A stretch of DNA of 61,055 nt, the filler included. It is 5 parts of 5 records of this genome, joined end to end, with 100 filler letters (N's around TTAATTAATTAA, not from the genome) between each part and the next. Parts side by side here need not be neighbours in the genome. Positions count along the whole stretch, not along the records: positions 20,264 to 38,504 come from SRR31156797_8150; 4 more parts are not named here. One strand, 5' to 3'. How positions within the stretch are numbered: the first letter of the stretch is position 1; the number at the start of each line of letters is the position of its first letter. Under the pieces are notes generated by a model that was given only the letters and a program-made list of their open reading frames with translations, was not told the DNA's origin and searched no databases. A program made the position numbers and the translations under genes. This document shows, one piece after another, positions 20,164-49,331 of the stretch.

Positions 20164-20263
20164 NNNNNNNNNNNNNNNNNNNNNNNNNNNNNNNNNNNNN
20201 NNNNNNNTTAATTAATTAANNNNNNNNNNNNNNNNNNNNNNNNNNNNNNNNNNNNNNNNNNNN
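20164..20263. other. Artificial contig spacer
   Basis: N-run + TTAATTAATTAA (stops in six frames) + N-run; identical spacers at 38505-38604, 49232-49331, 55568-55667. Confidence 0.98.
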
Positions 20264-21043: not shown

Positions 21044-21045
21044 TT

Positions 21046-21678: not shown

Positions 21679-21686
21679 GAGGCATA

Positions 21687-23180: not shown

Positions 23181-23737
23181 GCGACCGGGACGCGCTCTCT
23201 TTGACCTCCGGGGAACTGGGTTCTGAGAGGGTCGGTGTTGCCAATAGCCCTCTTATCAAGGGACAATGATCTCAGCTCCGAACGCATGTTGTTTGACAGT
23301 TGTGACAGTATATTGTCATAGCGCTTCAGAAGATCGAGGAGACGGACGAAGAACCGTACTTCATAAGTCGCAACTTCCTTTTTCTTCCTCCATTCGTAAT
23401 ACTTCTCACAATGTTCTGTCCGGACCCGTGTTTCAAACTCTTTTACCGCAGGCTTCGCTGACCCCTTAACCTCTGCATACTCATTGATGACTTGCACTTT
23501 AGCCTCTTCAAACTTCTGGTCATACCATTGATCAAAGTCCAGATCAATTAGGAGCTTCTTTGTCTTGGCTCTCTGGTATTCAACTTGCACTGTGAGTGCG
23601 ATTGACATATAGGAGGCCAATGCAGTATTGACCTCTACAGGGGTGACTTCTTCCTCGTGCACAAGCTTTGCCAGCTTGTCAAACTTCGCGATGTTCCGGA
23701 GAACGAATTCTTCATAATCTTTAATAATACTATCCAT
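23177..23737 (-). CDS. Coiled-coil protein, possibly UvsY-like recombination mediator
   Basis: Start re-set to MDSIIKD (186 aa); long helical protein; the phage also encodes RecA. Confidence 0.45.
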   Translation of the reverse strand: MDSIIKDYEEFVLRNIAKFDKLAKLVHEEEVTPVEVNTALASYMSIALTVQVEYQRAKTKKLLIDLDFDQWYDQKFEEAKVQVINEYAEVKGSAKPAVKEFETRVRTEHCEKYYEWRKKKEVATYEVRFFVRLLDLLKRYDNILSQLSNNMRSELRSLSLDKRAIGNTDPLRTQFPGGQRERVPVA

Positions 23738-23773
23738 GAAATCATAGTTAGACCTGTTAAGTACTATAAAAAC

Positions 23774-24187
23774 ATGAACGATGCAGTAGCTATTGAGATC
23801 CTTTATATCCTCCCGAAACGACAGGATCGCTGGATCTATGTGATAAACGACGGACGCAGACACTTGGAGACCACTGACGGCATCAGGCGGCTGGTGTTCC
23901 CTCTTTTGGAGGACCAAAATATCCCCCGGTTCATGGAACTAGTCTCTACCCTTGAGCGTATTCTGATCATCCCTTCCTCTCCGGATCAGGTCTTCTTATT
24001 AGAGAATGATCCGAATGCAATCCGAGAGCGGGAAAGGGTCGAAGTAAAGCTTCAGAAGATGCAACCTGACAAAGAGTACCAAAAGATGATTCAAAAGAAG
24101 CAAAAAGGAGAGGGGAAAGTGGGTTCCGATGACAACTCTAAACGCTCACAAAAACTGATCAACGGCATGCTCAAGTTTTTCGACTGA
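23774..24187 (+). CDS. Phage hypothetical protein
   Basis: Start re-set to MNDAVAI, which removes the overlap with the divergent gene; TACTAT-N6-ATG. Confidence 0.65.
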   Translation: MNDAVAIEILYILPKRQDRWIYVINDGRRHLETTDGIRRLVFPLLEDQNIPRFMELVSTLERILIIPSSPDQVFLLENDPNAIRERERVEVKLQKMQPDKEYQKMIQKKQKGEGKVGSDDNSKRSQKLINGMLKFFD

Positions 24188-24218
24188 TTTCTCTAATATT
24201 CGGCTTTATAGACTACTT
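24188..24218 (+). promoter_or_regulatory. Phage promoter motif copy 1 (CTCTAA-N17-TACTT)
   Basis: CTCTAA 24191-24196, TACTT 24214-24218. Confidence 0.8.
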
Positions 24219-24263
24219 ACTTGGTAAAGAAATATGAGGGTATATCCCTCGAAAGGATGATAG

Positions 24264-25367
24264 ATGAAACTGAATTTATCCAATCTGACCAAGTACAAAA
24301 AGGTTATAACGCGGATTTCTACCACAGGACATCCTAAGTTTGAGAACCTGTATTTTGACTTCCAGAACAAAATGATCTTCGCACAGGGGCCGAAGGAGGT
24401 TAAGGCCGGAATCCGTGTAGACATGGCGTTGATGGGAGATGAGACATTCGAGCAGTTTGGAGGCTTCTATGTACCCGCAATGAAGCTCCTCTCAGCGATC
24501 AGCCGCTCCCCTGAAGATATCACCCTCACTGTAGACGGAAAGTTCCTCCTATCCAACGGGGACAGCGTCAAACTTAAAATAACAGAAGATCCTACCTATG
24601 AGTCCCCTGAGGTTTTCAGAGAATCAGACACCGAATGGATTCTTGAAGATGAGAAACTGATGAAAGCCTTTGAAACATCACTGACTTTTGCTGAAGCGGA
24701 TATTGAAAAGCCTCTCTGTGGTGTCTTCATCGAGAATGGTATATTGCAGTCATCGGATGAGTCTGCGTACTTTATGTATCGCCTCAATGAACAGGCCGCC
24801 ATGTCGGGCCTAAACCTCCCTCTCCCCTTAAGATTCGCACGACTTTTCCACCCTGCATATAGTGCAAGTGAATCTGCCCTGCATCTATCGCAGGATGAGA
24901 ACGCAGTGTTCTTCCACTGTGGGGATATCGGCGTAGTTTGCTCCAAGGTCAGCAATCTTGAAATGATTGGTTATGATGACCCAGAATTCCAAGCATCGAT
25001 TAGAATAAATAACTACATAAAGTTGGACACAAAGACCCTACGGGGAGAGTTCAACTACTTAAGCCCCTTCTATATGGAAGCGCCCGGCACACGTATTAAG
25101 CTGACAGTTGTAGGGGATGACCTGCACATTAGCGTGACCGACACCCATGAAGTGCTTGTCAAGGTTCCGATTCTTTCCAAGTCAGAAGGATTCTCCTTAC
25201 CTGATGGTTACTACTTCTGGCTTTCTGGAGCCGATGTCAAGCAGACCGTTTTCCTCCTGAATGACGACGAGGAGGGATTCACCTTCAGGATCAACCCTGA
25301 AGGTGATTCTGTAACCTTTGAAGACAACGAAGGAATCACCATCGTTCAAGTTCTGATGGATGAATAA
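24264..25367 (+). CDS. DNA polymerase III beta-clamp-like sliding clamp
   Basis: 367 aa (DnaN length); repeated alpha/beta domains; 'KPLCGVFIENG..QSSD' resembles DnaN 'R..L.GV......VATD'. Confidence 0.6.
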   Translation: MKLNLSNLTKYKKVITRISTTGHPKFENLYFDFQNKMIFAQGPKEVKAGIRVDMALMGDETFEQFGGFYVPAMKLLSAISRSPEDITLTVDGKFLLSNGDSVKLKITEDPTYESPEVFRESDTEWILEDEKLMKAFETSLTFAEADIEKPLCGVFIENGILQSSDESAYFMYRLNEQAAMSGLNLPLPLRFARLFHPAYSASESALHLSQDENAVFFHCGDIGVVCSKVSNLEMIGYDDPEFQASIRINNYIKLDTKTLRGEFNYLSPFYMEAPGTRIKLTVVGDDLHISVTDTHEVLVKVPILSKSEGFSLPDGYYFWLSGADVKQTVFLLNDDEEGFTFRINPEGDSVTFEDNEGITIVQVLMDE

Positions 25368-25369
25368 TC

Positions 25370-25966
25370 ATGTATAACAAAACTGACATTACACACGGCA
25401 CCAGCCGAGCACAGACTAAGACATTGTTGCTGAATAAACTAACCAACTTTCTCAGTAACTTTCCTATCTGGATGGACTTGAGCATCGATGGTGATGACAT
25501 CTATTTGTACTTTGCTGATCGAGACTACCTTCTTCCTAAGGGAGCGCCGGATCACCTGCTCTACAAAATCAGATACAACCTCCCAGTGGTCGAGAATGTC
25601 TTCCAGATTCGGAAGATGCTGGTAGACAATTGGGCACCCCGTCTCCACTCGGTAACCCGGACCAAGCGCCCTGCGACCAAGCAAGAGATCGAGGAGATCC
25701 TCGGGCGAGGCGAATCTGTCCCTATGGAGGGTATAACCGAAGAAGAGGTACAAGAGCTCTTCATGTCGAAGATAATCCTCAGGAACGCCACTGTCGTGCT
25801 CTCAGAAAGAAATCTGAGGACCGGGAAGAAATGGTTCTACACCCTCAAGCGTCCTCTTGAAATGATCCTGGACAAGTATCAGACAATGAATGCGGAAGAG
25901 TTCTACAAGTTCTTCCTGACCAAGGCCACCTTGAAGAAGGTGGAAGAGTTCAAGATAGGAGAGTAG
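25370..25966 (+). CDS. Phage hypothetical protein
   Basis: 198-aa ORF tightly packed between clamp-like gene and exonuclease. Confidence 0.7.
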   Translation: MYNKTDITHGTSRAQTKTLLLNKLTNFLSNFPIWMDLSIDGDDIYLYFADRDYLLPKGAPDHLLYKIRYNLPVVENVFQIRKMLVDNWAPRLHSVTRTKRPATKQEIEEILGRGESVPMEGITEEEVQELFMSKIILRNATVVLSERNLRTGKKWFYTLKRPLEMILDKYQTMNAEEFYKFFLTKATLKKVEEFKIGE

Positions 25967-25968
25967 AT

Positions 25969-26952
25969 ATGGTACGGCTGAGATATAAATACATTCTTGT
26001 GGACCTTTCCAATCTGTATGCAAGAGCTTTCTTCACCCGCCAGAATGAAACGTTCCTGAATCAGCAGAACAAAGAGGTCGCGACTGGGGGGATCACTGGA
26101 GGCATCGCTATGTTGAAGAACCTCAAGCGCGATTATTTAGCGGAAGATGGGGAGATCTACATTCTGGTGGACAGCCATGGGAATTCTGCACCTGATGAAT
26201 TGCACCCCTATGAGAATTATCGGAAATCGATTATGCCCCAGTACAAGGGAACGCGTAAGGAAAAAACTGATGCATATAAAGCTGGCATCCCGGTTCTGAA
26301 AAATATCCTTCTCTCACTTGGAGCGCCTTACTTCATCATTGAAGTCCCTTCCCTTGAGGCAGATGATCTGGTGAAACCGCTTCTGAAGCTTCTGGAGCCC
26401 AAGGAATTCGAGGAGGCTATGCTTTTAACCAATGATGAAGACTGGTCCGTGAACATTACGGAAAACGTTATATGGAAAAGTGAGCAAAACGGAATGATGG
26501 GATCAAGAGAATTTCAAGAAAAGATGGGATTTTCTCCTGAAAAAGTGATTCTATACAAATGTATCAGAGGAGACCGGAAAAGTGATAATATCCCTCCCGG
26601 AGTCCCCTATCTCCCCTCTGACCATTTAAAGTACATCCTGAACAATTATACCACTCTACAGGAGCTCTATGCGAATCTAGATATGGAGGATCACATCCCA
26701 GAAAAATGGAAAGAAAGTATCCGTAGTAGGAACCATGCTCTCCGGATTAACGAGAAGGTGATCATGCCGATTCCTCTGGACCAAACCCTTCTGTCTCGAT
26801 ATCTGACGGCCTCACGTTTCAATGCCACCTTTTTAGAGTCAATCCTCACTTCTCTAAGGATCGATCCTCGTAGTATTGATTATCGCTTGAAGTCATCCCG
26901 GAATGAAAACACTCACAGCCCACTACGGCGGAGGAAGCTGAACCGAGCATAG
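25969..26952 (+). CDS. 5'-3' exonuclease/flap endonuclease (T4 RNase H-like)
   Basis: 'LVD..N..R.F', 'YR.....YKGTR', 'EADD', 'TNDED', 'GD..DNIP'. Confidence 0.9.
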   Translation: MVRLRYKYILVDLSNLYARAFFTRQNETFLNQQNKEVATGGITGGIAMLKNLKRDYLAEDGEIYILVDSHGNSAPDELHPYENYRKSIMPQYKGTRKEKTDAYKAGIPVLKNILLSLGAPYFIIEVPSLEADDLVKPLLKLLEPKEFEEAMLLTNDEDWSVNITENVIWKSEQNGMMGSREFQEKMGFSPEKVILYKCIRGDRKSDNIPPGVPYLPSDHLKYILNNYTTLQELYANLDMEDHIPEKWKESIRSRNHALRINEKVIMPIPLDQTLLSRYLTASRFNATFLESILTSLRIDPRSIDYRLKSSRNENTHSPLRRRKLNRA

Positions 26953-26956
26953 TAAC

Positions 26957-26985
26957 TTGACATCCATTCGAGGGGATGTTAATAT
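26957..26985 (+). promoter_or_regulatory. Host sigma70-type promoter with palindrome in the spacer
   Basis: TTGACA-N17-TAATAT; ACATCC-N8-GGATGT at 26960-26979; ATG 6 nt after the -10. Confidence 0.65.
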
Positions 26986-26991
26986 TCTAAC

Positions 26992-27240
26992 ATGGGAAAT
27001 ATGGATGAACAGGAGAATCTAAATAAGCTCTACAAACCGGAAGACAGTCACCCTCTGAAACATTGGGCTGACGTACTTGGGTTGAAGCCCAAGGTTTTTC
27101 GGAACGCTTGTAGCCGGGCACGTATCACACCAGCTCCTGATGAACAGAATTACCGTTCTTACCTTACGTTTGAACAGTTCAGAAAAGTAGCAATCCATAC
27201 AGAAATTGGAAAGCAAATGTTTCTGGACAGAAAGCTTTAA
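26992..27240 (+). CDS. Small putative HTH DNA-binding protein
   Basis: 'LKHWADVLGLKPKVFRNACSR' HTH-like pattern. Confidence 0.55.
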   Translation: MGNMDEQENLNKLYKPEDSHPLKHWADVLGLKPKVFRNACSRARITPAPDEQNYRSYLTFEQFRKVAIHTEIGKQMFLDRKL

Positions 27241-27245
27241 TGGTA

Positions 27246-27271
27246 TGCACTCTTCGGAGTGCAATTTTTTT
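27246..27271 (+). terminator. Rho-independent terminator with UUCG tetraloop
   Basis: tgcactc-ttcg-gagtgca then a T-run. Confidence 0.85.
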
Positions 27272-27316
27272 CTCTAAATCTTTCTCCAATCGAGTACTTC
27301 CTTGATATAGGAGAAA
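27269..27316 (+). promoter_or_regulatory. Phage promoter motif copy 2 with SD-sequestering hairpin
   Basis: CTCTAA 27272-27277, TACTT 27295-27299; tttctcc (27281-27287) pairs with ggagaaa (27310-27316). Confidence 0.8.
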
Positions 27317-27320
27317 CACA

Positions 27321-27590
27321 ATGTCTGAAGAATTGACAAACATGACCGATGCCCAAAAAGAGGCAGTTACAAACCTGTTTACCAGAAAGCTGGAACAGGA
27401 GGACAGCAACAAGTTGATTATGGATGGGATCGGAGCCGAGTTCAAGGCTGTAGCCAAAGAGCTCGGGATCAAGGTCGCAGAGCTGAGCCGTTCATACACG
27501 AAGCATAAGGCCCGGATCAACGACCCTCTGAAGGAGGAGAAATCTGATGAGATCCTCCTCCACTGTTACCCTAATAGTTACGACAAGTAG
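27321..27590 (+). CDS. Small helical DNA-binding protein, T4 DsbA/GapR-like
   Basis: 89 aa; 'IGAEFKAVAKELGIKVAELSR' pattern; close to the RNase H-like gene as in T4. Confidence 0.5.
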   Translation: MSEELTNMTDAQKEAVTNLFTRKLEQEDSNKLIMDGIGAEFKAVAKELGIKVAELSRSYTKHKARINDPLKEEKSDEILLHCYPNSYDK

Positions 27591-27595
27591 TCAAG

Positions 27596-27625
27596 GCGCA
27601 CCTCAAATACGGGGTGCGCTTTTTT
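27596..27625 (+). terminator. Rho-independent terminator
   Basis: gcgcacctc-aaatac-ggggtgcgc then a T-run. Confidence 0.8.
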
Positions 27626-27640
27626 ATTGACTATGAGTTC

Positions 27641-28153
27641 ATGCTAGAGAAAGACTTCAATTCCCTATTCCAGAAAGTTATCAATTTTCATGATGCAGGC
27701 TTTGCATACAAAATCCCGGACCCACCGAAACAAGCGATTAACTCCTCGGCCAAACGGCCATTCGACATCATGGGGTCCTTGAAAGGCAAGCCGCTCGGGA
27801 TTGAGAACAAGCTGATCAAGTCGCACTTCGGTGCATTTAACTTATCTCGGCTGGAAGATCATCAGCTCCCTAAGCTTTTGGAGATGTATGCGGCGGCGGG
27901 AGATGACACATACATCGGTGTGGGCGTCTGCTGGTGGCAGTCCCGTACTCTTTACGAGTTCATATACTTCCCAGTCACGACAATGCACTGGATGACCGAG
28001 AAAGGTTACTCATCGATCCCCAAGAAAGCCCTTTTGGAGCTCCGCCCGGATCATGCAATCCCGGTTAAGAAGGGACTATTTGATGTATCACTGCTGGAGT
28101 CCCGGCCTGTGAGAATCTCAAAGCTGAGTCTTTTATCAGATCATCTCCGGTAG
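27641..28153 (+). CDS. RecU-like Holliday junction resolvase (PD-(D/E)XK)
   Basis: Start re-set to MLEKDF; 'KIPD', 'PFD', 'IENK', 'EDHQ'. Confidence 0.75.
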   Translation: MLEKDFNSLFQKVINFHDAGFAYKIPDPPKQAINSSAKRPFDIMGSLKGKPLGIENKLIKSHFGAFNLSRLEDHQLPKLLEMYAAAGDDTYIGVGVCWWQSRTLYEFIYFPVTTMHWMTEKGYSSIPKKALLELRPDHAIPVKKGLFDVSLLESRPVRISKLSLLSDHLR

Positions 28154-28199
28154 TTTCTCTAAAAATATCTCCAGCAGAGTACTTAATCTATGTGAGGTA
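28154..28199 (+). promoter_or_regulatory. Phage promoter motif copy 3 with SD-sequestering hairpin
   Basis: CTCTAA 28157-28162, TACTT 28180-28184; tatctc (28166-28171) pairs with gaggta (28194-28199). Confidence 0.78.
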
Positions 28200-28205
28200 A
28201 ACCTA

Positions 28206-29045
28206 ATGACAAAAGATCAGTTTGACCTGTATACCAAGGTCCATAAGAAAAAAGGGTATTCCAAAGCTTGCTGTCGATGTGGAGAAATGCACTACTATCT
28301 GCACAAGTCTCCGGAGTTCCCCAAACCAACCGCTTGCCCCATCTGTGGGGAGGAATGGTGGGATAAACCCCTCGATGAAGCAAAATGTTTTAATGCACAG
28401 AAAGTCTATCTGGCAGACCGTACCAATGATAACTTTTACAAACTTTACAATGAGGTCTACCCCTACGCAGTAAGAACTGCTCAGGGGATGCTCCGATCCA
28501 AGAAGATTATTCCAGATTTACATGAGAAGGCACATGACGGAACCATGATCTTTCTCTCCAATTTTCTGACCAACGAGAACCATAAAGTGGAGTTGTCCTT
28601 CGGTTCCTTTCTAGAACGTGTTTTGAGGGGTCCCCTCTTCAAAGATGCACTGCACGATCAAGTGCTCTCCCTCGACTGGAAGAAGCCTGACGGAGACAGT
28701 AACCTCGGTCAGTATCTCGGAACTGATGACGATGAACCAGCCATGTCCACCCCCACCAACCAGATCTATTACGATGAACAACTGGAGGGCACGGCCACGG
28801 AAAATGGCGTAGTACAGGACATCCTCAAGATCATCGATGTATTCTGTGATGACCTCCGGGGAACTGACCCTGCTGGGGCGCTTCTACTCCGTGCCGGGAT
28901 CTATACATTTTTCCTTCAGAAGTCCCGCTCCTCGATGGACGTTTTCTACGATTTGGCCGGGGAAGAAATCACTGAGCTTCTTGACCGATTTGCCCTGTAC
29001 CTCCGGGACTACCTATACCAGACAGGAAACTTGATTAGCGAGTAG
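28206..29045 (+). CDS. Putative phage sigma-like factor with N-terminal Zn ribbon
   Basis: CxxC-X18-CPxC, then a sigma region-2-like segment (FYKLYNEVYPYAVRTA...DLHEKAHDG...SFGSFL) and 'VLSLD'. Confidence 0.5.
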   Translation: MTKDQFDLYTKVHKKKGYSKACCRCGEMHYYLHKSPEFPKPTACPICGEEWWDKPLDEAKCFNAQKVYLADRTNDNFYKLYNEVYPYAVRTAQGMLRSKKIIPDLHEKAHDGTMIFLSNFLTNENHKVELSFGSFLERVLRGPLFKDALHDQVLSLDWKKPDGDSNLGQYLGTDDDEPAMSTPTNQIYYDEQLEGTATENGVVQDILKIIDVFCDDLRGTDPAGALLLRAGIYTFFLQKSRSSMDVFYDLAGEEITELLDRFALYLRDYLYQTGNLISE

Positions 29046-29069
29046 TATTGACCTGCTTACTATCATGGT

Positions 29070-29546
29070 ATGAAATCTTTAGTCGATAACCCGAAGAACA
29101 TTTTTGAAGTGCAAGTCAATGAGGTGCTTCAAAGGAAAATATCTGATGAGGAGCTTCTGCTCTCCATCGCCTCAATGGTTTTTTTCTCAAACCCTCGAAA
29201 CGAGTCCCTTACCAAGCTCTATAATAATGTAGGGCTGGGGCCCTTTGTCCAAGTGATGGACACCTTTAGTGGGAAAACCATCACCTTTCCCACCAAGCAA
29301 GAGCTGGAGGAGCTTCTGACCTTGAGCATGTGCTTCTACTTCCGAGAGATCGAGGAGAAGGAATGGGATGAGATTCAATCGATCATACCTTTTGAGCTGA
29401 ACACGGTGCTCTTAGGCCATAAAATCGGAGGAATCAACAAAATGATTAAAAACCACCTGAGCAAGAAAAGCTCGTCTGGGAGATACTCCCCTACCCCGGA
29501 TTTTTCGCAGGCCTACGAGACCTTCAGGGAAGTTTTTTCAAAATAA
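29070..29546 (+). CDS. Mor/C-family-like transcription activator
   Basis: 'VGLGPFVQVMDTFSGKTITFP' matches the Mor-type 'G.....L...FGG..IY.P' pattern; helical C-terminus. Confidence 0.55.
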   Translation: MKSLVDNPKNIFEVQVNEVLQRKISDEELLLSIASMVFFSNPRNESLTKLYNNVGLGPFVQVMDTFSGKTITFPTKQELEELLTLSMCFYFREIEEKEWDEIQSIIPFELNTVLLGHKIGGINKMIKNHLSKKSSSGRYSPTPDFSQAYETFREVFSK

Positions 29547-29605
29547 TTCTCTAAAAAATCGGCTTCAGGGGTACTTCTCTTTAACAGACCATCATGAGGA
29601 GTACC
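29547..29605 (+). promoter_or_regulatory. Phage promoter motif copy 4 with SD-sequestering hairpin
   Basis: CTCTAA 29549-29554, TACTT 29572-29576; ggtacttctc (29570-29579) pairs with gaggagtacc (29596-29605). Confidence 0.8.
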
Positions 29606-29607
29606 AC

Positions 29608-30195
29608 ATGAAGCCGGTATCATTTGAAGAGTATTGTTCAACTTATGAACAGACTGGTCGCTGTCCGGGGGATACCATTTCTTCCGGGAATAAGCGCCGC
29701 CCCCTAAATGAGAGGGAGCTAAAAACCAGATATATGAAATACTGCTCCAAGCTGGAACAGAAAGAACTCCGGAAAGAGAAGCAGTTCAAAGAGCTCAAAC
29801 AGAGCTCCGACCGCACTTGCACCAAAATGATCAAAGACAAGCGTTGGGAGGACACTCGGAAGGCCGTATACAACCGCGACCACCGGGAGTGCCAGCTCAT
29901 CAAAGCCATCAACGTACGCGAGGTGGCCATCCTGTATTCTAACTGTGGGCATCTAGTCAACTTCCTCGATCCTGCCCATATCTTCGGGAAGGGTGCCTTC
30001 CCTACCATGAAATATGACGTAGACAACATCACAGCCCTTAACCGCTACAGCCACACCATGCTGGATACAGGGCATTGCCCATTGACCGGCAAACAGATTT
30101 CAGCAACGGAAGTTGCCTTTTGGTGGAAACGAATCATTGGGGAGAAACGATATGAAGCGCTCAAAGAAAAAGCCGAAGACACACGCCGCTCCTAA
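29608..30195 (+). CDS. HNH-type nuclease (NinG/Rap-like)
   Basis: 'W...RKAVYNRD..CQ', 'DPAHIF......YDVDNITAL.R..H'. Confidence 0.65.
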   Translation: MKPVSFEEYCSTYEQTGRCPGDTISSGNKRRPLNERELKTRYMKYCSKLEQKELRKEKQFKELKQSSDRTCTKMIKDKRWEDTRKAVYNRDHRECQLIKAINVREVAILYSNCGHLVNFLDPAHIFGKGAFPTMKYDVDNITALNRYSHTMLDTGHCPLTGKQISATEVAFWWKRIIGEKRYEALKEKAEDTRRS

Positions 30196-30451
30196 GAAGG
30201 AGCAGGAAGTCAAACCGCCACATCCCTACGTTGGGAAACAAGGATCGCCTGCGGGTCAAGACTGGACTTGCACTATCAAAGCGGTACGTCCCTCTCGTGA
30301 CGGTGAGCGGATGTACTGCGATTTCGAGAACAGTTTTACCTGCTCTCTCGAAACGGTAGTCATTCAAGAAGAGGAAAGTATTGGCGAAGAACAAGAAAAC
30401 GCTGAGCGGACTGGAGGCCCTACAAGCAGACCTACAGAAGAAGTACGGTGA
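30152..30451 (+). CDS. Phage hypothetical protein
   Basis: Fills the gap between HNH and recA but overlaps both. Confidence 0.4.
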   Translation: MKRSKKKPKTHAAPKKEQEVKPPHPYVGKQGSPAGQDWTCTIKAVRPSRDGERMYCDFENSFTCSLETVVIQEEESIGEEQENAERTGGPTSRPTEEVR

Positions 30452-31493
30452 GTCCATTTCGGACTGGAATCAAGTAGGGAAAGTCCCGAGGATTCCAACC
30501 GATGCATATAGACTCGATAAAGCCCTTGGTGGAGGACTTCCTGAGGGCCGTGTTATTGAAGTGTTTGGTCCTGAGAGCTCGGGTAAGACATCACTTGCCC
30601 TGTTTCTTGCAGGCGTCTACCAGAAAAATGGATTCAATACGGCATACATAGACCAAGAGCATGCTATAGATCCTCAGTATTCATTATCCTTTGGGTACGA
30701 CCCCACCAAATCAATTTTTTCACAGCCTGACTATGCTGAGCAGGCCCTTGACATTGCAATAGACCTTGCATCCTCGGGTCAGATCCGTTTGATTTGCCTC
30801 GACAGTGTGGCCGCACTGTCTCCGCGAGCAGAAGTGGAAGGAGAGATGGGGGATGCACAGATTGGGCTTGTGGCGCGGCTTATGAGTAAGTTCATGAGGA
30901 AAATCACTCCAATCCTGCGGCAGAACAACTGTACTCTCATCCTAATCAACCAGACTCGGGTCAAGATTGGCGGCTGGTCTCCCACTGGTGCCGCTCCGGA
31001 GGACACCACAGGAGGAAAGGCCATCAAGTTCTTTGCCTCAATCCGATGCAAGGTGACTCGTGGTGACGGCATCCTGAGCGGAAAAGACACCATCGGTATG
31101 ATTTCCAAGATCAAAATGGTTAAGAACAAGACCGCTCCTCCATTCCAGACCGCAGAGATGAAGATAATCTTTGGTCAAGGATATCAAGTCGAGGCCGATT
31201 GGGTGGATGCCTGTATCGATTTCGACATAATCAAGAAGGGCGGTGCATGGTTCTCCATTCCCGATACCGAGTTCAAGTTCCAAGGCCGAGAGAAATTAGA
31301 AGCGTTCCTATATGACCGGCTGGACGTTTTTGAGCCCCTCAAGCTTCAAGCGAAAGACCTACTGGCCGGGAATGTCGCAGAGCATGAAGTCGATGGTGAT
31401 GACCTCCCTGAAGACCTCCCTTCTGACGAAGAGCTCCTGATCCTGACCCCCGAAGACCTGAAGGAAATGGCCGCAGACGCGGCTGAGGACTGA
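30381..31493 (+). CDS. recA: RecA recombinase (phage-encoded)
   Basis: 'GPESSGKT', 'DSVAAL', 'ARLMS', 'INQTR', 'GGKAIKF', 'KNKTAPPF'; TTG start after GAGG. Confidence 0.95.
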   Translation: MAKNKKTLSGLEALQADLQKKYGESISDWNQVGKVPRIPTDAYRLDKALGGGLPEGRVIEVFGPESSGKTSLALFLAGVYQKNGFNTAYIDQEHAIDPQYSLSFGYDPTKSIFSQPDYAEQALDIAIDLASSGQIRLICLDSVAALSPRAEVEGEMGDAQIGLVARLMSKFMRKITPILRQNNCTLILINQTRVKIGGWSPTGAAPEDTTGGKAIKFFASIRCKVTRGDGILSGKDTIGMISKIKMVKNKTAPPFQTAEMKIIFGQGYQVEADWVDACIDFDIIKKGGAWFSIPDTEFKFQGREKLEAFLYDRLDVFEPLKLQAKDLLAGNVAEHEVDGDDLPEDLPSDEELLILTPEDLKEMAADAAED

Positions 31494-31512
31494 GCCGTTA
31501 AAGCCATATTGC

Positions 31513-31551
31513 AAAAAGGAGAGGTTTTTTCCGAAAAATCTCTCCTTTTTT
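31513..31551. terminator. Terminator hairpin overlapping a degenerate phage promoter
   Basis: aaaaaggagaggttttt-tccg-aaaaatctctccttttt; TTTTCCGAAAAA at 31527-31538 and TACTT at 31554-31558. Confidence 0.7.
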
Positions 31552-31587
31552 GGTACTTACCTTACATATCACTCAACGGAGGAATTC

Positions 31588-31731
31588 ATGAGTAATTCTA
31601 ACATCACAGTTAATGGAAAGAAGGTCAGCAAGGCTGAGCTTTCCAAGATCAGAGAAGAGACCAAGACACAGAAGGGTGTGAAGCTGGTGGAGGTCTCTCC
31701 AAACAATTTCAAAAAGCAAATAAAGGGGTGA
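31588..31731 (+). CDS. Small basic phage protein (47 aa)
   Basis: Missing from the ORF track; GGAGG SD; MSNSNITVNGKKVSKAELSKIREETKTQKGVKLVEVSPNNFKKQIKG. Confidence 0.7.
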   Translation: MSNSNITVNGKKVSKAELSKIREETKTQKGVKLVEVSPNNFKKQIKG

Positions 31732-31733
31732 GA

Positions 31734-32081
31734 ATGAGTCAACAAATTGATATGAATGATCATTCAAAGAGGCTTAGCTCGATTGCAGACCTCTCCATTC
31801 TTCAAGCGAAGGAGCTACTGGAGGCACAGGCGATCACCGCCGTCATGGACTGCATCGAGACCGACTCCATTGCCATCCCGCTCATCGGTACTCTACACAT
31901 AAAGCACACCGACGACATCACGGATGCTGAAGGGAAGAAGGCCATTCTAGAATGTAACTTTGAACCGGATCCCTTCCTGCGGAAGTCTATAGGGCAGGCC
32001 GCTGATGGAGTGGCTACAGAAGCAGATGAGCTCTATCGGAAAAAGACTGAATCCCAGCTCATGAAATCCATAGGAGATTAA
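31734..32081 (+). CDS. HU/IHF-like DNA-binding protein (divergent, acidic)
   Basis: Two N-terminal helices, 'SIAIPLIGTLHI', 'FEPDPFLRKSI' resemble HU 'V.I.GFG.F' and 'F.P...LK..V'. Confidence 0.5.
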   Translation: MSQQIDMNDHSKRLSSIADLSILQAKELLEAQAITAVMDCIETDSIAIPLIGTLHIKHTDDITDAEGKKAILECNFEPDPFLRKSIGQAADGVATEADELYRKKTESQLMKSIGD

Positions 32082-32087
32082 GCTTTG

Positions 32088-32783
32088 ATGGATGAATTTC
32101 TGTTGAGGTTTGATCAAGAGCTCGGTCAAGAAGTATCAGTCCCAAACCCAGAGTTTGAAGCAGAGAAAGAACGAGTTCACCGGGAGAAAGCATACACCAC
32201 TGCTGGAATCCCGGAGAGCCGGTTCAACCTCTCCTTTGACTCTTATATCGGGGAAAAGTCTAAGGGGAACCTTAAATCTCTGGAGTTCTTTATTACGAAC
32301 TTCGAAAAGGCCTGTCGCTCTAAAGCAAACCTGTACTTCTGGGGAGGAAACTCAACTCAAAAGAGTAGTGTCGCTACAGTTATGGGAATGCGGTTGATCG
32401 ACGCCGGGCATTCTGTACGGTTTATCACGTTCTCGGAACTAACAGATCACCTCCAGAACGAGCAGTTTAATGAAGACTCACGAGACCTGATAAACAACCT
32501 TTATAAAGTCGAACTTCTAATTGTGGATGATGCCTTTGATCTGAAAAAGACCAAGATGTACAAATCTGGGCACCAAATCCCTTTTCTGGACTCTTTCTTT
32601 CGACGGAAACTGGAGACCACCAACACCCTGACACTATTTACAAGTAACACCCGCTTGGAAGATTTAGAGGCGCAGTTCAACACCGATATCAATCACCTCC
32701 TCCGGCGAAATGTCCGTGCTCTCCACTTCCAAGATGATGTGAACTATTTCGAGATAGACAACGACTTCTGGAGTGAAGAGTAA
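32088..32783 (+). CDS. DnaC/IstB-like AAA+ helicase loader
   Basis: 'GIP......SFD', degenerate Walker A 'GGNSTQKS', Walker B 'LLIVDD', 'TSN'; directly upstream of DnaB. Confidence 0.75.
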   Translation: MDEFLLRFDQELGQEVSVPNPEFEAEKERVHREKAYTTAGIPESRFNLSFDSYIGEKSKGNLKSLEFFITNFEKACRSKANLYFWGGNSTQKSSVATVMGMRLIDAGHSVRFITFSELTDHLQNEQFNEDSRDLINNLYKVELLIVDDAFDLKKTKMYKSGHQIPFLDSFFRRKLETTNTLTLFTSNTRLEDLEAQFNTDINHLLRRNVRALHFQDDVNYFEIDNDFWSEE

Positions 32784-34172
32784 ATGGTAAAAACTGAAAT
32801 AATTGTCAAAGAGCAACTTTTGTTAGCTTGCCTGCTGAACAGTCGGGACCCATACCTGTCCCTGTCCGTAGAGAACTGTTTTTCGGAACCATTGTCTCAA
32901 GCAATTTTCTATGGAATTCAGTCTACGGCAAAGGCCGGTCTTGGGATGCTCCCTGACAACATTTTAAAGTATGCAGTTAAAAAACATTCGTCTGTAACTC
33001 GGACAACGATTGAACGGCTGATTGAAAAGCCCCATGACCTCAATGGTTTTGAACTCTATTACGAAGACTGCCGGAAGACCTATGCCCAGTCACAGATACA
33101 AGACCACATCCTAAAGGACGCTCTTGTGGAGGCCTCAAGCAAAGATGGCCTAAGTATTGAGGGTATGGAAGCGATAGTCCGGAAGATCCAAGACAATCTA
33201 GAGGTAGTACGCGGGTCTGGAACAAAAATCCTGTCTGGTAGAAAGCTGGCAGAGGCACAGAATGAGCGATATCAACTCCGAAAGGAAGGGCATGCCAAGT
33301 ATACCACCGGAGACGCCTTTCTTGATAAGCAGCTAATTACGGGGTGTGCCCCGGGCGAGATATCAACGATCTTTGGTGCATCTGGATCTGGCAAATCTGC
33401 AAAAGTCATGAACAACTTCTCTGGGCTAATCAACAAACGGGTCCCCTGTGCGTTATTCACATTGGAGATGTCTGCGGAAGCGTCTCTTGACCGACTCACA
33501 TCAATCCGGTCTGGTCTCCCCATGGAGAAGTTCTATAAGGCACAAGAGGATGACGGATATGACCTCTTTTTCTACGAGGAGGCTCGCCGAATCCAGAGCC
33601 TGCTTGCACAGAAAGATCATTTCCGGGTTATCGACGATCCGAGTATCAGCATGTCCACTCTGGAAAACTATGTGATACAGCTACAGCGGATCTTTAGGTC
33701 AAAATATGTTATGTGCATTATCGACCTTGGGACAATGCTGAAAGAGCTCTCCTCAGGGAAGCCACAAGAAATTGAATACGGTATGAACATTCTGAGTGAG
33801 GTGGCAAAACGCACTGGTGTGCATTTCATGCTTGTAGTGCAGGCCAGTCGTTCTGCCGACTCCGCAAACGTAACCTGTATTGACCATCTGGATCGTCTCC
33901 GCCCAACACAGAACGATATCAAGAACTCAGCGGCGATCTATGAGAGATCCCGTCTGGTTATCTCCACATTCAGACCGAAGTTCTATGCCATGCGTATCTT
34001 TGGTAAGGACGATGAAGAAGTACAATATATGAAGGATATCATGGAGATTACAATCCAGAAGCAGAGTAACGGTGCGGTCGGCCAGCGGCTTCAGTATATC
34101 TACCATGCACCCACATTCCGCTGTCTCCCCTACCGAGAGGAGCCTGTTCCTATAATTGAGGAAGCCGCATGA
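32784..34172 (+). CDS. dnaB: DnaB-like replicative helicase
   Basis: 'TG...LD....G', 'GASGSGKS', 'LEMS', 'Q.SR', 'D.K.S.AI'. Confidence 0.85.
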   Translation: MVKTEIIVKEQLLLACLLNSRDPYLSLSVENCFSEPLSQAIFYGIQSTAKAGLGMLPDNILKYAVKKHSSVTRTTIERLIEKPHDLNGFELYYEDCRKTYAQSQIQDHILKDALVEASSKDGLSIEGMEAIVRKIQDNLEVVRGSGTKILSGRKLAEAQNERYQLRKEGHAKYTTGDAFLDKQLITGCAPGEISTIFGASGSGKSAKVMNNFSGLINKRVPCALFTLEMSAEASLDRLTSIRSGLPMEKFYKAQEDDGYDLFFYEEARRIQSLLAQKDHFRVIDDPSISMSTLENYVIQLQRIFRSKYVMCIIDLGTMLKELSSGKPQEIEYGMNILSEVAKRTGVHFMLVVQASRSADSANVTCIDHLDRLRPTQNDIKNSAAIYERSRLVISTFRPKFYAMRIFGKDDEEVQYMKDIMEITIQKQSNGAVGQRLQYIYHAPTFRCLPYREEPVPIIEEAA

Positions 34173-34507
34173 TAGTTGATGATGTCCTTTCACAGATTCA
34201 GAGAAATCTACTGAACCCCCCGTCCCAACAAACCGGAATCATCGTCCTTGAAAGGAGTGTGAATGCCGCAGAGCGTGTGCAACACCAGCTACTACAGAGG
34301 GTTGTTGAACATGGCTTATCTGGACATGTGCGGAATCAGAAGCCTTGCATGCTCTTCTTCCCACATTTCACAATCTTCTTTTCTGCCTCCAAGACCCCTC
34401 TCCCTGAGGGGGATTTGGAGGGCTGTAAAGGAACCGAGTTCATGTATCAGTTGGATGGCCTGTTTAAGACGGGTCAGAACTGGATTCTTTTTGACGGCGC
34501 TCCTTGA
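34169..34507 (+). CDS. Phage hypothetical protein
   Basis: ATGA start/stop overlap with dnaB. Confidence 0.55.
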   Translation: MIVDDVLSQIQRNLLNPPSQQTGIIVLERSVNAAERVQHQLLQRVVEHGLSGHVRNQKPCMLFFPHFTIFFSASKTPLPEGDLEGCKGTEFMYQLDGLFKTGQNWILFDGAP

Positions 34508-34715
34508 ATTTCTTCGGTTCCCACTGGATCAACCAACGAATCCCTTTCAATGCCCATACCAAGAGCTGGAGGGGTAAGTAAATCCACCAGCAGAAGAATA
34601 CAGCCACACTTGACTCAAGATCCCTCTTTTTGTTCAAAAAAGAATAATGGATCTTAGCCATTACCAAGCCACATAAAAGATAAAACAACAACGCAAATAT
34701 TATTCCGTATTCCAT
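34464..34715 (-). CDS. Small membrane protein (2 TM, basic C-terminal tail)
   Basis: Two hydrophobic segments; GACTAT-N6-ATG. Confidence 0.6.
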   Translation of the reverse strand: MEYGIIFALLFYLLCGLVMAKIHYSFLNKKRDLESSVAVFFCWWIYLPLQLLVWALKGIRWLIQWEPKKFKERRQKESSSDPS

Positions 34716-34721
34716 GGGTTT

Positions 34722-34770
34722 ATAGTCCTCCCCCCGGATTTCTCTAAAAAATCAGATTTAGGCCTACTAG
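34722..34770. promoter_or_regulatory. Phage promoter motif copy 5 overlapping a divergent promoter
   Basis: Plus strand: CTCTAA 34742-34747, TACTAG 34765-34770, ATG at 34777. Minus strand: TTTTTA-N17-GACTAT-N6-ATG (34715). Confidence 0.7.
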
Positions 34771-34776
34771 GAAGAC

Positions 34777-36663
34777 ATGAACAACTACCAAAACCCTCCC
34801 TTTCTGCTAATCCAAATCGAAGGAAATTACGGGGTGAAAATCCAATACCCGCAGGTCCCACAAGAAGATCGGGAGGATCTTTCTGAACTCATGCAGTCCT
34901 ACCGTGGGAAGTTTCATGAAACCCATAAGAAGTATCCGGGATGGACCTTCTTCTACAGGGTTCCTCAGGAGTTCATAGGTGCCTGTATAACGGCCCTTTA
35001 CGGCTTCTTTGATATCCCGATGCCACTGGAGCACAGACACTTCATACAGAACTTCACAGAGACAGACCGCGTCCGAGCCCTTGTGCATCGAGATCTACTG
35101 AAATATCCTCCGAAAGGCGATTTCCAGCTTGACTCAATTCAGCGGGGTGTACAAAGCAATGCACTGATATGGTTTCTGGAAATGGGAATGGGGAAGTCCT
35201 ATATCTCAATCTCCACCCTCAATCACCGCCGCACTCATGATGGTGTAGATAAGATCCTCATCCTGTGTCCGCCTGAAGGGGTTTACAACTACCAAGCAGA
35301 GCTGATCAGGTTCAGTGTTCCGATGATCACCGAGGATGACATCTATATAGTAACCCCAGAAAATCGAGAACCCTTCGCTCCAGATCAAACCCGGCCTGTC
35401 GTCATATGTACCTATCGCCGTTTCCTGATGATCTGCGAAGATGAATACAAAAGGACCCGGAAGAAATCAGTCCCCGAGTCACGGTTCATACATAACCCGA
35501 TATTTGATCTCTCAAAGTGGGGCACCAACCGGGCTCTGATCATGGATGAAATGCACTTCCTCCGGAACAAAGAGAGCAAACAAACTGCACTTACCTTTGT
35601 GCATGCCAAATTCTTCCAGTTCCGATACGGGCTCACCGGAACACTTATCCCGAAAGGCCCCGAGAACCTCTGGACTCAAATGCGAATCATCGACCGCTAT
35701 GCCATCGGGATGCCTTTTCAGGCCTATGTGGATGAGATCGCTTTTAAAGGCAATATGTATAGTGAATCCGCAATCACAGAGTACAAGCCTGAAGGGGTGG
35801 ACAAGTGGAATCGCAAGCTCTCTCCATGGATCGACAAGAAGCTGGCAAAAGATTACCTGAACCTTCCCCCTCTGGTGGCTGAGAAAATCCTCTGTGAGCC
35901 CTCTGCTCGCCAGCAAGAGTTATACAGGGGTTTAGCCCAGTCTGAGTTCAGCAGGATCAGAGAGAAAGCAGGAGGAACCCTCGATGTCGCTGAAGTTGAG
36001 CAGGTGTTCCCCTACCTGCTCTTGGCCCTTGATGATCCGTCCCTTTTACGCGGAAAGATCACCGGCAAGAACAAGGCACTAGAACGGATGTGCAACAACT
36101 GGAAGTTCAAGGACCATGGGAAAATCGATATCTGTGAATCCCTGATTGAGAAGCATGTAAAAACTCTGGAGCAGAAAATGATTGTGTGGTCCGGGCACCC
36201 CTCTACGTTGGATTCACTGGCTAAACATTTCTCCAAGTATGGGGTAAAGGCTATGCATGGGGAGACAGTTGCTCCCTACGGGGATCAGATCCAGTTCCGT
36301 GCCGATGTGATCCGAGAGTTTGAAGACCCTACCTCTGACCTGAAAATTCTCTTTCTCAGTTATCTGGCGTTCTCGACGGCCATCACTCTGCTACAGGCCA
36401 AGGCCACAATATGGTTCGATCTACCGACCTCATACGAACATTTTGCTCAGGCACGTAAGCGTAACCACCGCATAGGACAGGAGGATATCGTAACCTGCTA
36501 TGACTTAGTTTTCAGGAACTCTCTACAGGAATTCAACTACAATTCCTTGGTATATGGGAAGGGTCTTCGGAACGAGCTGATGTTCAAGAACACCGACACT
36601 CCGCTGACCAAGGAAGACTGGCGGAATATTCTGACCGGGAAGTACGTGTCTAAATACCAGTAA
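34777..36663 (+). CDS. SNF2/DEAD-like superfamily 2 helicase
   Basis: 'EMGMGKS', 'DEMH', 'LTGT', 'Q...RNHRIGQ'. Confidence 0.9.
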   Translation: MNNYQNPPFLLIQIEGNYGVKIQYPQVPQEDREDLSELMQSYRGKFHETHKKYPGWTFFYRVPQEFIGACITALYGFFDIPMPLEHRHFIQNFTETDRVRALVHRDLLKYPPKGDFQLDSIQRGVQSNALIWFLEMGMGKSYISISTLNHRRTHDGVDKILILCPPEGVYNYQAELIRFSVPMITEDDIYIVTPENREPFAPDQTRPVVICTYRRFLMICEDEYKRTRKKSVPESRFIHNPIFDLSKWGTNRALIMDEMHFLRNKESKQTALTFVHAKFFQFRYGLTGTLIPKGPENLWTQMRIIDRYAIGMPFQAYVDEIAFKGNMYSESAITEYKPEGVDKWNRKLSPWIDKKLAKDYLNLPPLVAEKILCEPSARQQELYRGLAQSEFSRIREKAGGTLDVAEVEQVFPYLLLALDDPSLLRGKITGKNKALERMCNNWKFKDHGKIDICESLIEKHVKTLEQKMIVWSGHPSTLDSLAKHFSKYGVKAMHGETVAPYGDQIQFRADVIREFEDPTSDLKILFLSYLAFSTAITLLQAKATIWFDLPTSYEHFAQARKRNHRIGQEDIVTCYDLVFRNSLQEFNYNSLVYGKGLRNELMFKNTDTPLTKEDWRNILTGKYVSKYQ

Positions 36664-36710
36664 TTTCTCTAAAAACAGCTCCTTCGGGATACTTATCCTT
36701 CGAAGGAGTT
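36664..36710 (+). promoter_or_regulatory. Phage promoter motif copy 6 with SD-sequestering hairpin
   Basis: CTCTAA 36667-36672, TACTT 36690-36694; ctccttcg (36679-36686) pairs with cgaaggag (36701-36708), loop ACTT. Confidence 0.8.
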
Positions 36711-36714
36711 GAAC

Positions 36715-38504: not shown

Positions 38505-38622
38505 NNNNNNNNNNNNNNNNNNNNNNNNNNNNNNNNNNNNNNNNNNNNTTAATTAATTAANNNNNNNNNNNNNNNNNNNNNNNNNNNNNNNNNNNNNNNN
38601 NNNNCAAGCAAAGTACGCTTAA

Positions 38623-49207: not shown

Positions 49208-49331
49208 CTGTAACGTCCCGAGTGATTATCTNNNNNNNNNNNNNNNNNNNNNNNNNNNNNNNNNNNNNNNNNNNNTTAATTAATTAANNNNNNNNNNNNN
49301 NNNNNNNNNNNNNNNNNNNNNNNNNNNNNNN

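Follow-up and report, generated by a model that had tools for sequence, protein, structure and literature searches.

The stretch of DNA analysed here, referred to as the window, comprises 61,055 bases and consists of five contigs joined by spacers of the form N44-TTAATTAATTAA-N44 (20164-20263, 38505-38604, 49232-49331 and 55568-55667). Its second contig (20264-38504, 18,241 bases) is a fragment of a phage genome, and here a two-block motif, CTCTAA-N17-TACT(T/A), recurs between the genes of a replication and recombination block; the whole finding is confined to this contig. Tail and baseplate genes at 20312-23180 are followed by the rightward block, which encodes a clamp-like processivity factor, a 5'-3' exonuclease, a resolvase-like protein, an HNH-motif protein, RecA, an HU-like protein (a weak assignment), a DnaC-like loader, a DnaB helicase, an SNF2 helicase and a DHH phosphoesterase. 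The last gene of the contig encodes an exonuclease and is cut by the contig end. Two further open reading frames (ORFs) in the block, 28206-29045 for a sigma-like protein and 29070-29546 for its partner, bear on how the motif may be read. The fraction of guanine plus cytosine (G+C) ranged from 0.32 to 0.51 across the contigs of the window, being about 46% in the phage contig and 32-39% in the first contig. As these are separate contigs of differing G+C, the neighbours of the phage contig say nothing certain about its host.

The two-block motif and its copies

An earlier reading of the DNA letters alone, the sequence-only reading, had listed six copies of the motif as promoters of a phage-specific class. 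An exact search returned all six on the plus strand, at 24191, 27272, 28157, 29549, 34742 and 36667. In total, CTCTAA-N17-TACTW was matched exactly seven times in the window, where 100 dinucleotide-preserving shuffles predict 0.04 matches and none of them reached seven; every match fell in the phage contig and none in the other four. All six plus-strand copies lie in non-coding DNA, which accounts for 1,489 of the 18,241 bases (8.2%) of the contig, and all are oriented like the genes downstream, in agreement with the placement first described. Six of the nine gaps of at least 40 nucleotides (nt) in the contig hold an exact copy. In four cases a stop codon of the gene before is immediately followed by a copy, and in one case the T-run of a terminator is.

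The CTCTAA block is invariant across the six copies, and the spacer between it and TACT is 17 nt long in each, with differing sequence. Conservation extends beyond the blocks of the first description, to (T/A)TTCTCTAAa and G-N2-TACTt. The hexamers at the −10 position are TACTTA (three copies), TACTTC (two) and TACTAG (one); T at −7 is missing from all six, and likewise from a degenerate copy at 31530. Scored with an extended weight matrix, the six copies reached 23-31 bits in a leave-one-out calculation and the next best site in the window 12.7 bits, while across 200 shuffles the top scores had their 95th percentile at 17.0 bits and did not exceed 20.2 bits. The motif class is therefore sharply bounded. 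A recount agreed with the earlier statement that the base 12 nt past the T of TACT is a purine in seven of seven copies, the degenerate one included, and follows a pyrimidine in six of them. Shine-Dalgarno (SD) sequences are recognisable 4-8 nt ahead of the downstream start codons.

Copy 1 (TTTCTCTAA-N17-TACTTA, 24188-24219; 28.8 bits, 23.0 on leave-one-out) directly follows the stop codon of ORF 23657-24187, with its TACT 50 nt ahead of the ATG of the clamp-like gene (24264-25367). Copy 2 (27269-27300) comes after the T-run of a terminator at 27246-27263 and precedes ORF 27321-27590 (89 amino acids (aa), no assigned function), for which a leader of 14 nt is predicted; the label 'DsbA-like' that had been attached to this ORF was supported by no search result and is dropped. 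The best match to the consensus, at 32.7 bits, is copy 3 (28154-28185), which directly follows the stop codon of the resolvase-like ORF 27614-28153 and stands ahead of the sigma-like gene. Copy 4 (29547-29578) begins directly after the stop codon of ORF 29070-29546 and precedes the gene of the HNH-motif protein (29608-30195). In copy 5 (34739-34770) the −10 block is TACTAG, the end of which lies 6 nt before the SNF2 start codon (ATG 34777); the SNF2 mRNA made from it is predicted to be leaderless. Copy 6 (36664-36695) directly follows the SNF2 stop codon and lies ahead of the DHH phosphoesterase gene, the likely start of which is ATG 36715, with an SD sequence AAGGAG at 36703-36708.

The seventh, degenerate copy (TTTCCGAAAAA-N-GGTACTTA, 31527-31559, plus strand) stood in part. 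It is indeed present in a gap, ahead of the small ORF 31588-31731, which has a strong ribosome-binding site, and it lies within a terminator-like hairpin (31513-31550, z −3.8); its 12.1 bits are not significant by the weight matrix alone. One exact core match had not been listed before. It is on the minus strand (32642-32669), inside the DnaC-like gene, scores 6.8 bits without flanking conservation and may be either a chance match or a weak antisense promoter.

Two further observations concern the gaps and gene starts of this region. An interval of about 230 nt ahead of copy 5 (34508-34738) has no convincing plus-strand ORF, no Rfam match at E ≤ 0.1 and no tRNA; Rfam and tRNA scans of the whole phage contig and of the window likewise gave 0 matches. 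At 27593-27622 lies a strong terminator-like hairpin with 12 pairs and a T-run; it overlaps the GTG at which the resolvase-like ORF 27614-28153 is annotated to begin, and translation probably starts at ATG 27641 instead. No promoter was recognised for this gene.

The motif has the anatomy of a −35/−10 promoter, with two different blocks and a spacer of fixed length and free sequence, and the bipartite architecture of the sigma-70 family, with 17 ± 1 nt of free spacer, is found in all six copies. Independent support for TACTWN as a −10 hexamer came from its recurrence at a fixed distance from start codons. TACTA[TG]-N6-ATG occurs three times on the plus strand, each time at an ORF start (23774, 29070 and 34777), against a shuffle mean of 0.19 (P for three or more, 0.004), and two of the three (23774 and 29070) have no CTCTAA block upstream. 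The first of these is a −10-only site, TACTAT-N6-ATG at 23762-23776, 6 nt before the in-frame ATG 23774 of ORF 23657-24187, a protein whose homology to relatives starts past residue 43. The second (TACTAT-N6-ATG, 29058-29072, plus strand) precedes the partner gene 29070-29546, and its hexamer falls within the 24-nt gap (29046-29069) behind the sigma-like gene. A minus-strand counterpart, AACTAT-N6-ATG at 23735-23749, precedes a probable gene that runs from ATG 23737 to 23177 between the tail and replication modules and encodes about 186 aa with a predicted coiled coil and no family. This gene diverges from ORF 23774-24187 over a 36-nt gap that holds the AACTAT and TACTAT hexamers back to back.

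Only one strong canonical promoter of the sigma-70 type, TTGACA-N17-(TG)TAATAT with an extended −10 (26957-26985, plus strand), is present on the contig. It lies in a 39-nt gap, and its hexamer also ends 6 nt before an ATG, that of ORF 26992-27240; the terminator 27246-27263 follows the ORF. With the hexamer 6 nt before ATG both in the canonical promoter and in the TACTWN sites, one geometry is shared between them. It fits leaderless mRNA, because a start 7 nt past the −10 hexamer would coincide with the ATG, and suggests that leaderless mRNAs may be frequent in this phage. The interval 26957-27263 thus forms a unit of its own, with a sigma-70 promoter, an 82-aa ORF, an intrinsic terminator with T-run and a predicted leaderless mRNA. 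Its ORF 26992-27240 is a candidate early regulator; it has no family match and looks helix-turn-helix (HTH)-like by eye.

Taken as sequence elements, the six copies are very probably real promoters; we infer start sites about 7 nt past the hexamer and also a temporal class.

The motif was compared with promoter classes of known specificity. CTCTAA has at most two of six bases in common with TTGACA, a sigma-70 consensus scan listed none of the six sites, and the sigma-70 −10 form TAnnnT, with T at −7, occurs in none of the six copies. A sigma-28 promoter would read TAAA-N15-GCCGATAA, with a 15-nt spacer; here the spacer is 17 nt, the −10 is TACTT and CTAAA alone is in common. The T4 middle type combines a good TAnnnT −10 with a MotA activator box near −30 in place of the −35, whereas here T-7 is missing and the upstream block is at the standard −35 position. 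The T4 late type is a single word without a −35, unlike the six-copy motif with its invariant −35-type block. The −35 sequence CTCTAA, the absence of T-7 and the 17-nt spacer thus bear out the statement of the sequence-only reading that the motif is unlike sigma-70, sigma-28, sigma-54 and T4 late promoters. A promoter of the Bacteroidota type, the consensus of which is TTTG / TAnnTTTG, was ruled out by the strong SD sequences and the lack of TTTG, and an archaeal promoter with B recognition element (BRE) and TATA box by the bacterial-type replication genes (RecA, DnaB and DnaC). The near-perfect canonical promoter on this contig suggests that the host has a primary sigma factor of ordinary specificity.

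Beyond the window, an exact scan of viral contigs for the motif gave at least 119 loci; the 80 listed were single matches on different contigs, as would be expected by chance. In a text search of the literature for the consensus, the matches listed were chance strings, as judged by titles and abstracts, which is no proof that the motif is unpublished.

The sigma-like protein, its partner and related phages

ORF 28206-29045 (plus strand, 279 aa) had been called sigma-like, and the sigma-2 fold matches of its structural model, with Z up to 9.0, uphold that description. At the level of sequence it had no match in Pfam, NCBIfam or the functional PHROG families, and a profile search of the PDB gave no sigma match. 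When 1.84 billion representatives were searched exhaustively with HMMER, 183 relatives appeared at E ≤ 0.001, 76 of them at E ≤ 1e-10 and nearly all 250-290 aa long. The closest, P0001 (56% identity), is encoded on a 127.7-kb contig and another family member on a 152-kb contig; members seen in context lie on contigs of 128-152 kb. A scan of a genome collection with A4 gave one partial match to the zinc ribbon alone (L126), and from metagenomes A4 drew two short contigs, L127 and L128, with 27-29% identity and without the six-copy motif. Throughout the family a Cys4 zinc ribbon is invariant and is followed by helical regions.

An AlphaFold model built from an alignment of 75 sequences had a predicted local distance difference test (pLDDT) score of 86.5, compared to 42 for a model from two sequences. 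In this model an N-terminal Cys4 zinc ribbon is followed by a sigma-2-like domain (residues ~55-150). A disordered linker leads on to a helical domain that may be sigma-4-like (~195-279). Foldseek gave no match at E ≤ 0.001, and all listed sigma rows were at E ≥ 0.012; judged by titles, about 38 of the 48 listed rows were sigma factors or initiation complexes that contain one. In a fold search made with a method other than Foldseek, sigma factors took at least 26 of 50 rows. Sigma-2 domains, aligned to residues ~55-150, ranked highest, with the ShbA sigma factor (Z 9.0) and sigma-2 of SigC, described as the 'Pribnow box recognition region' (Z 8.1, root-mean-square deviation 2.9, 88 of 89 residues); next came BldN, SigB, SigW, sigma-32, pro-sigma-K and chain F of the T4 complex 7d7d (Z 6.7). 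Residues 195-279 matched the C-terminal part of Fusobacterium sigma-H (3mzy) with Z 6.4, and unrelated helical proteins matched equally well. In the protein atlas the adjacent clusters are viral, one of them with Sigma70_r2 (PF04542) in 100% of its members (score 0.93). We conclude from the model that, at fold level, ORF 28206-29045 is a divergent sigma-type factor with an added zinc ribbon; it may accordingly bind polymerase and DNA.

The partner, ORF 29070-29546 (plus strand, 158 aa, no known family), directly follows the sigma-like gene in the window as well as in L120 and L121. Its closest homologue, P0156 (59% identity), is encoded on the same 127.7-kb contig as P0001. By gene order, the sigma-like gene and the 158-aa partner form a conserved pair. 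The partner matched nothing in Pfam or NCBIfam and, in a PDB profile search, nothing with E below 1; a weak lead from the atlas points to activators of the Mor family (score 0.85; 17% of the cluster carries PF08765).

The phage itself appears to belong to a lineage without cultured relative. Megablast of the phage contig against 50,697 phage records gave no DNA match, and when four proteins (SNF2, DnaB, the clamp and the sigma-like one) were compared with the phage records by tblastn, identities were about 20-25% or no match appeared, with helicase identity to cultured phages of at most 24%. No match came from viral contigs, whether scanned with the SNF2 protein, alignment A1 or P0008, nor from a metagenome scan with P0008.

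Two IMG/VR contigs, G001 (133 kb) and G002 (147.6 kb), allowed a comparison with uncultured relatives, and both complete records were searched for words enriched upstream of genes. Ten genes are common to the phage contig, G001 and G002: the sigma-like gene (25-26% identity to ORF 28206-29045), its partner (32-34%) and eight others, which include those of the HNH-motif protein, RecA, SNF2, DHH, the clamp and the exonuclease. The HNH gene 29608-30195 follows the sigma-like gene and its partner in both relatives, with 32-38% identity, and is a core gene of the module; this conserved synteny ruled out that it is a mobile homing endonuclease.

Each relative has two promoter classes, one host-like and one a private single word. 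The host-like class is tgGTATAATATA in G001 (15 intergenic copies) and TTTACA...tAGTATA(C/T)T in G002 (16 copies), and promoters of this type (TGGTATAAT in G001, TTTACA...TAGTATAYT in G002) precede the clamp, RecA, Rad50-like and sigma-like genes. The private class reads AACTATCT in G001, where six of nine copies lie at most 120 nt upstream of an ORF on the same strand, and AACTATT[AT][AT] (consensus AACTATTTTATTA) in G002, where 20 of 30 do. In neither relative does the private word AACTAT(C/T)T have a conserved upstream (−35) block. It stands ahead of the tail sheath and tail tube genes in both and also ahead of the tail fibre and head protease genes in G002; examples are found at 36012, 49810, 52593, 61370, 67517, 72345, 76372 and 85750 in G002 (L136-L143) and at 96680, 120973 and 123510 in G001 (L129-L135). 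AACTAT(C/T)T occurs at orthologous genes of the two phages and, placed as it is before structural genes, is likely to be a late promoter class of the T4 kind. The geometry described above recurs here, with AACTAT-N6-ATG once per relative (96680 in G001, 65464 in G002) and TATACT-N6-ATG twice in L121. The bases A-C-T at −11 to −9 are common to the AACTAT of the relatives and the TACTTN and TACTAT of the window.

In the relatives the zinc-ribbon sigma-like gene thus appears to be transcribed by the host, as expected of a late sigma factor. It lies behind a −10 of the host type, TATAAT or TATACT (L120:9884-9994, L127:~730-830 and L128:~2600-2720), and directly past this −10 a hairpin, ACCTATGG...CCATAGGT in L120 and L127, is followed by a T-run in both; it looks like a conserved 5' leader attenuator or a terminator. 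Both relatives encode in addition a second sigma-like ORF on the minus strand, of 245 aa in G001 (L123:1066-1803) and of 205 aa in G002 (L145:1411-2028), each with weak similarity to Sigma70_r2 and the latter behind a host-type promoter. The weak Sigma70_r2 match has E 0.0035, and the ORF is kept between G001 and G002 at E 1e-15. For its C terminus the PDB offered weak matches in UPF0122 and in a DNA-binding response regulator, two domains which we take to be of the LuxR / sigma-4 helix-turn-helix type. No homologue of this second ORF was found in the window. Judged from these genomes, the phage group has private promoters and sigma-type proteins of its own.

What may read the motif

We propose that the six copies, of the form (T)TTCTCTAAA-N16/17-G-N2-TACTT(A/C), would act as phage-private promoters, with a rightward start about 7 nt past TACTTN. 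They would drive the genes of the clamp, of the HNH-motif protein and RecA, of the SNF2 helicase and of the DHH phosphoesterase as well as the small gene 27321-27590, and also the phage's own sigma-like gene with its conserved partner. Host core RNA polymerase would read the motif through a phage-encoded sigma-type factor. This factor could be the zinc-ribbon protein of ORF 28206-29045, perhaps together with that of ORF 29070-29546, which would imply positive autoregulation; it could also be a second sigma-like factor, encoded beyond the 18 kb, like that of both relatives.

As a whole, a private promoter class read through a phage sigma-type factor is the best explanation and one we hold with moderate confidence; dependence of the motif on some phage-encoded factor is probable. 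That the reader is the autoregulating zinc-ribbon sigma is a tentative assignment, and that it is another phage factor from beyond the 18 kb is possible, with somewhat less in its favour. The sequence-only reading had likewise assumed a phage-specific class read by a phage factor. This remains the best reading, and a sigma fold is present in the region, but ORF 28206-29045 is one option among several. The six-copy motif fits best as a pre-late (middle-type) class that is confined to this phage or perhaps shared with its nearest kin.

A secondary and weaker proposal concerns translation. At four copies base pairing is possible between the spacer/−10 region and the downstream SD sequence, so that little protein would be made from read-through transcripts; RNA that begins at the motif, having no 5' arm, would be translated, as at some T4 late genes. 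By hairpins of this kind T4 limits translation of e, soc, 49 and I-TevI to late-promoter transcripts. The predicted RNA hairpin at copy 4 (29558-29618, plus strand, −31.8 kcal/mol, z −6.9) has the promoter spacer and −10 in its 5' arm, and its 3' arm lies over the SD sequence and AUG of gene 29608. At copy 6 (36676-36711, plus strand; z −3.9 for a 76-nt fold) the 5' arm again holds spacer and −10, and the DHH gene's SD sequence, AAGGAG, is covered by the 3' arm, and at copy 2 (27281-27316, plus strand) the spacer/−10 region pairs with the SD sequence of gene 27321 (z −2.9 including the terminator). For the copies at 27272, 28157, 29549 and 36667, the calculated probability that the SD sequence is unpaired was 0.20, 0.01, 0.00 and 0.00 in read-through RNA and 0.96, 0.40, 0.61 and 0.54 in RNA from the predicted start. 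We offer SD occlusion at the motif genes as a hypothesis only.

A number of results weigh against the reading of the motif through a phage sigma-type factor, or against one of its parts. The 18 kb seen are probably taken from a genome of more than 130 kb. The sigma-like gene itself stands behind copy 3, and the first source of its expression, needed if ORF 28206-29045 reads the motif, was not found in the contig. None of the 75 family members scanned matched a Pfam sigma model, zinc-ribbon models alone giving matches, and the Z values of the fold matches are middling for helical proteins. CTCTAA-N16-18-TACT is present in 0 copies in G001 and one in G002, compared to seven each for the backwards-read control (three forward and four reverse). 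The zinc-ribbon sigma-like family co-occurs in the relatives with a single-block, not a two-block, motif; as the orthologues of the motif genes lie there behind host-type promoters, the six-copy motif is positionally the equal of host-read promoters, and the two sigma-like ORFs per relative mean that sigma and promoter cannot be paired. The A-C-T resemblance between the −10 words is confined to three bases. As for the hairpins, an unpaired probability of the SD sequence of at most 0.05 was found for three of six motif genes and one of nine control genes, which is not significant, and a wider accessibility window (−14 to +3) gave small and inconsistent differences.

In a more far-reaching form of the proposal, the zinc-ribbon proteins would constitute an undescribed phage sigma lineage that reads −10 words with an A-C-T core (AACTAT/TACTAT/TACTTN), this phage having added a −35-type box, TTTCTCTAAA. 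In most members the lineage would then use a single-block promoter for the late genes, in the way of T4 gp55. We regard this as doubtful. If true, the phage would have taken over its own sigma-like gene and the replication module for a self-amplifying middle programme independent of host sigma and coupled to the occluding hairpins.

Among the alternatives, the one that survives best is that a host sigma factor alone reads the motif, either a primary sigma of unusual specificity or an alternative sigma exploited by the phage. The clamp, RecA and sigma-like genes of G001 and G002 lie behind host-type promoters, which indicates that pre-late genes of the group normally use host holoenzyme; the motif ahead of the sigma-like gene itself is explained most simply without a phage sigma, and T-12 and A-11 of the standard −10 hexamer are present. 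The near-perfect canonical extended −10 promoter on the contig nevertheless argues for a host primary sigma of standard specificity, for which a −35 with at most two of six bases of TTGACA and a −10 lacking T-7 in six of six copies would be a poor match. To our knowledge the motif also fits none of the sigma-28, sigma-54, sigma-H, sigma-B, sporulation-sigma and extracytoplasmic function (ECF) consensus sequences, and the 42.8 kb of bacterial contigs in the window, which need not be from the host, hold 0 copies. We consider this alternative unlikely.

A little less likely again is sigma appropriation or a class-II-type activator. Here TTTCTCTAAAAA would be the box of a phage-encoded activator that replaces the −35, like the MotA box in T4, and host or phage sigma would act on TACTT; the candidate activators are ORF 26992-27240, HTH-like by eye, and the 158-aa ORF 29070-29546. 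Several observations agree with such a scheme. In the relatives the private motif consists of one −10-type block and has no −35, so that the −35-like block would be an addition of this phage. ORF 26992-27240 is the sole gene behind the canonical host promoter, which fits an early regulator, and ORF 29070-29546 is kept beside the sigma-like gene and has the weak Mor-family lead in the atlas (0.85, 17% of the cluster). However, the T4 middle class keeps a good sigma-70 −10 (TAnnnT), whereas T-7 is missing here, and neither candidate gave a family, profile or PDB match to a DNA-binding fold. The upstream block is neither a dyad nor a direct repeat, unlike most activator sites, and its rigid placement at −35, 17 nt from the hexamer, is exactly what is expected for contact with sigma region 4.

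The motif might also be no promoter at all, and instead be a repressor operator of the 'stoperator' kind or a recombination boundary between gene modules. Oriented intergenic stoperators are found in some mycobacteriophages, and the copies are indeed intergenic, of one orientation and near-identical, with four of the six starting at a stop codon like module junctions. Stoperator-type sites are single contiguous words, though, while the motif has two different blocks with a fixed spacer of free sequence, its distances to SD sequences and start codons are promoter-like, and TACTAG lies exactly 6 nt before ATG, as in three other hexamer-ATG pairs. As for junctions, the mobile promoter-stem-loop cassettes of T4 are themselves promoters. 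This makes a function other than that of a promoter improbable. Least likely of all is a phage RNA polymerase, single- or multisubunit, encoded beyond the visible 18 kb: a partial genome is seen and many large phages carry polymerases with private promoters, but the sigma-like proteins of the group would imply use of the host core polymerase, and the phage polymerase promoters known to us are contiguous words or hairpins at the start site, not −35/−10 pairs with a 17-nt spacer.

Known phage systems and significance

Private promoters read through phage sigma factors, as favoured here, are of a known kind, with SPO1 gp28 and gp34, T4 gp55 and gp36 of phiEco32 and 7-11 as examples; the consensus, the phage and the sigma family are new. 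The large virulent Bacillus phage SPO1 redirects the core polymerase of its host with small sigma factors of its own. In its cascade sigma-A serves the early genes, gp28 is the middle sigma and gp34 acts with gp33 on the late genes. The SPO1 late sigma gene lies among replication genes, behind the same private middle promoter class, and the middle and late consensus sequences of SPO1 differ from the six-copy motif. One account of SPO1 gives gp28 as early and gp34 as middle, the late sigma gene thus being a middle gene (PMC13401047). The likeness to the phage contig is in the sigma-like gene with a small neighbour, within the replication module and behind the same private motif, and in the two sigma-like proteins of the relatives. 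SPO1 is the closest model for a reader that is another phage factor from beyond the 18 kb. It differs in that here the sigma-like protein has a zinc ribbon and the 18 kb hold no early sigma gene; moreover, the similarity of cultured phages to this phage is confined to 20-24% identity in helicases.

Late transcription of T4 uses the sigma gp55, the co-activator gp33 and the clamp gp45 at the promoter TATAAATA. The AACTAT(C/T)T word of the relatives, without −35, is similar, and chain F of the gp45-dependent complex 7d7d was among the fold matches. A further likeness, not significant against controls here, is in the promoter-SD hairpins, as in T4 where solely internal late-promoter transcripts are translated. 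In contrast to T4 late promoters, the six-copy motif has a strong −35-type block and stands ahead of replication genes, and ORF 28206-29045 exceeds gp55 in size and ends in a domain that may be sigma-4-like.

The promoters of phiEco32 and 7-11 are about one extended −10-type word, and their sigma factors match standard profiles. For phiEco32 gp36 and the sigma of phage 7-11, private promoters are reported that were found by aligning intergenic DNA (PMC8948821, PMC4331800). Here, too, a sigma-family protein and a private class obtained by intergenic alignment occur together, their pairing being conditional, but 0 of 75 members of the zinc-ribbon family match a Pfam sigma model. With the sigma-70 promoter TTGACA-N17-TATAAT the motif shares the two hexamers, the 17-nt spacer, T-12, A-11 and a start, predicted in this case, about 7 nt past the −10; it differs in the −35 CTCTAA, in a −10 TACTT(A/C) without T-7 and in a G 3 nt before the hexamer instead of the TG of an extended −10.

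Nothing is overturned by these observations, the strategy having been a textbook one since SPO1 and T4. Private promoter classes time gene expression in large virulent phages, and each new sigma-promoter pair is a candidate orthogonal expression switch. The present case offers a sharp two-block consensus together with a candidate zinc-ribbon sigma lineage, and the relatives a clean split between host-type promoters at replication genes and the private AACTAT(C/T)T at structural genes. If the pairing of sigma and promoter were confirmed, it would provide a regulatory annotation for an uncultured phage group with genomes of about 130-150 kb.

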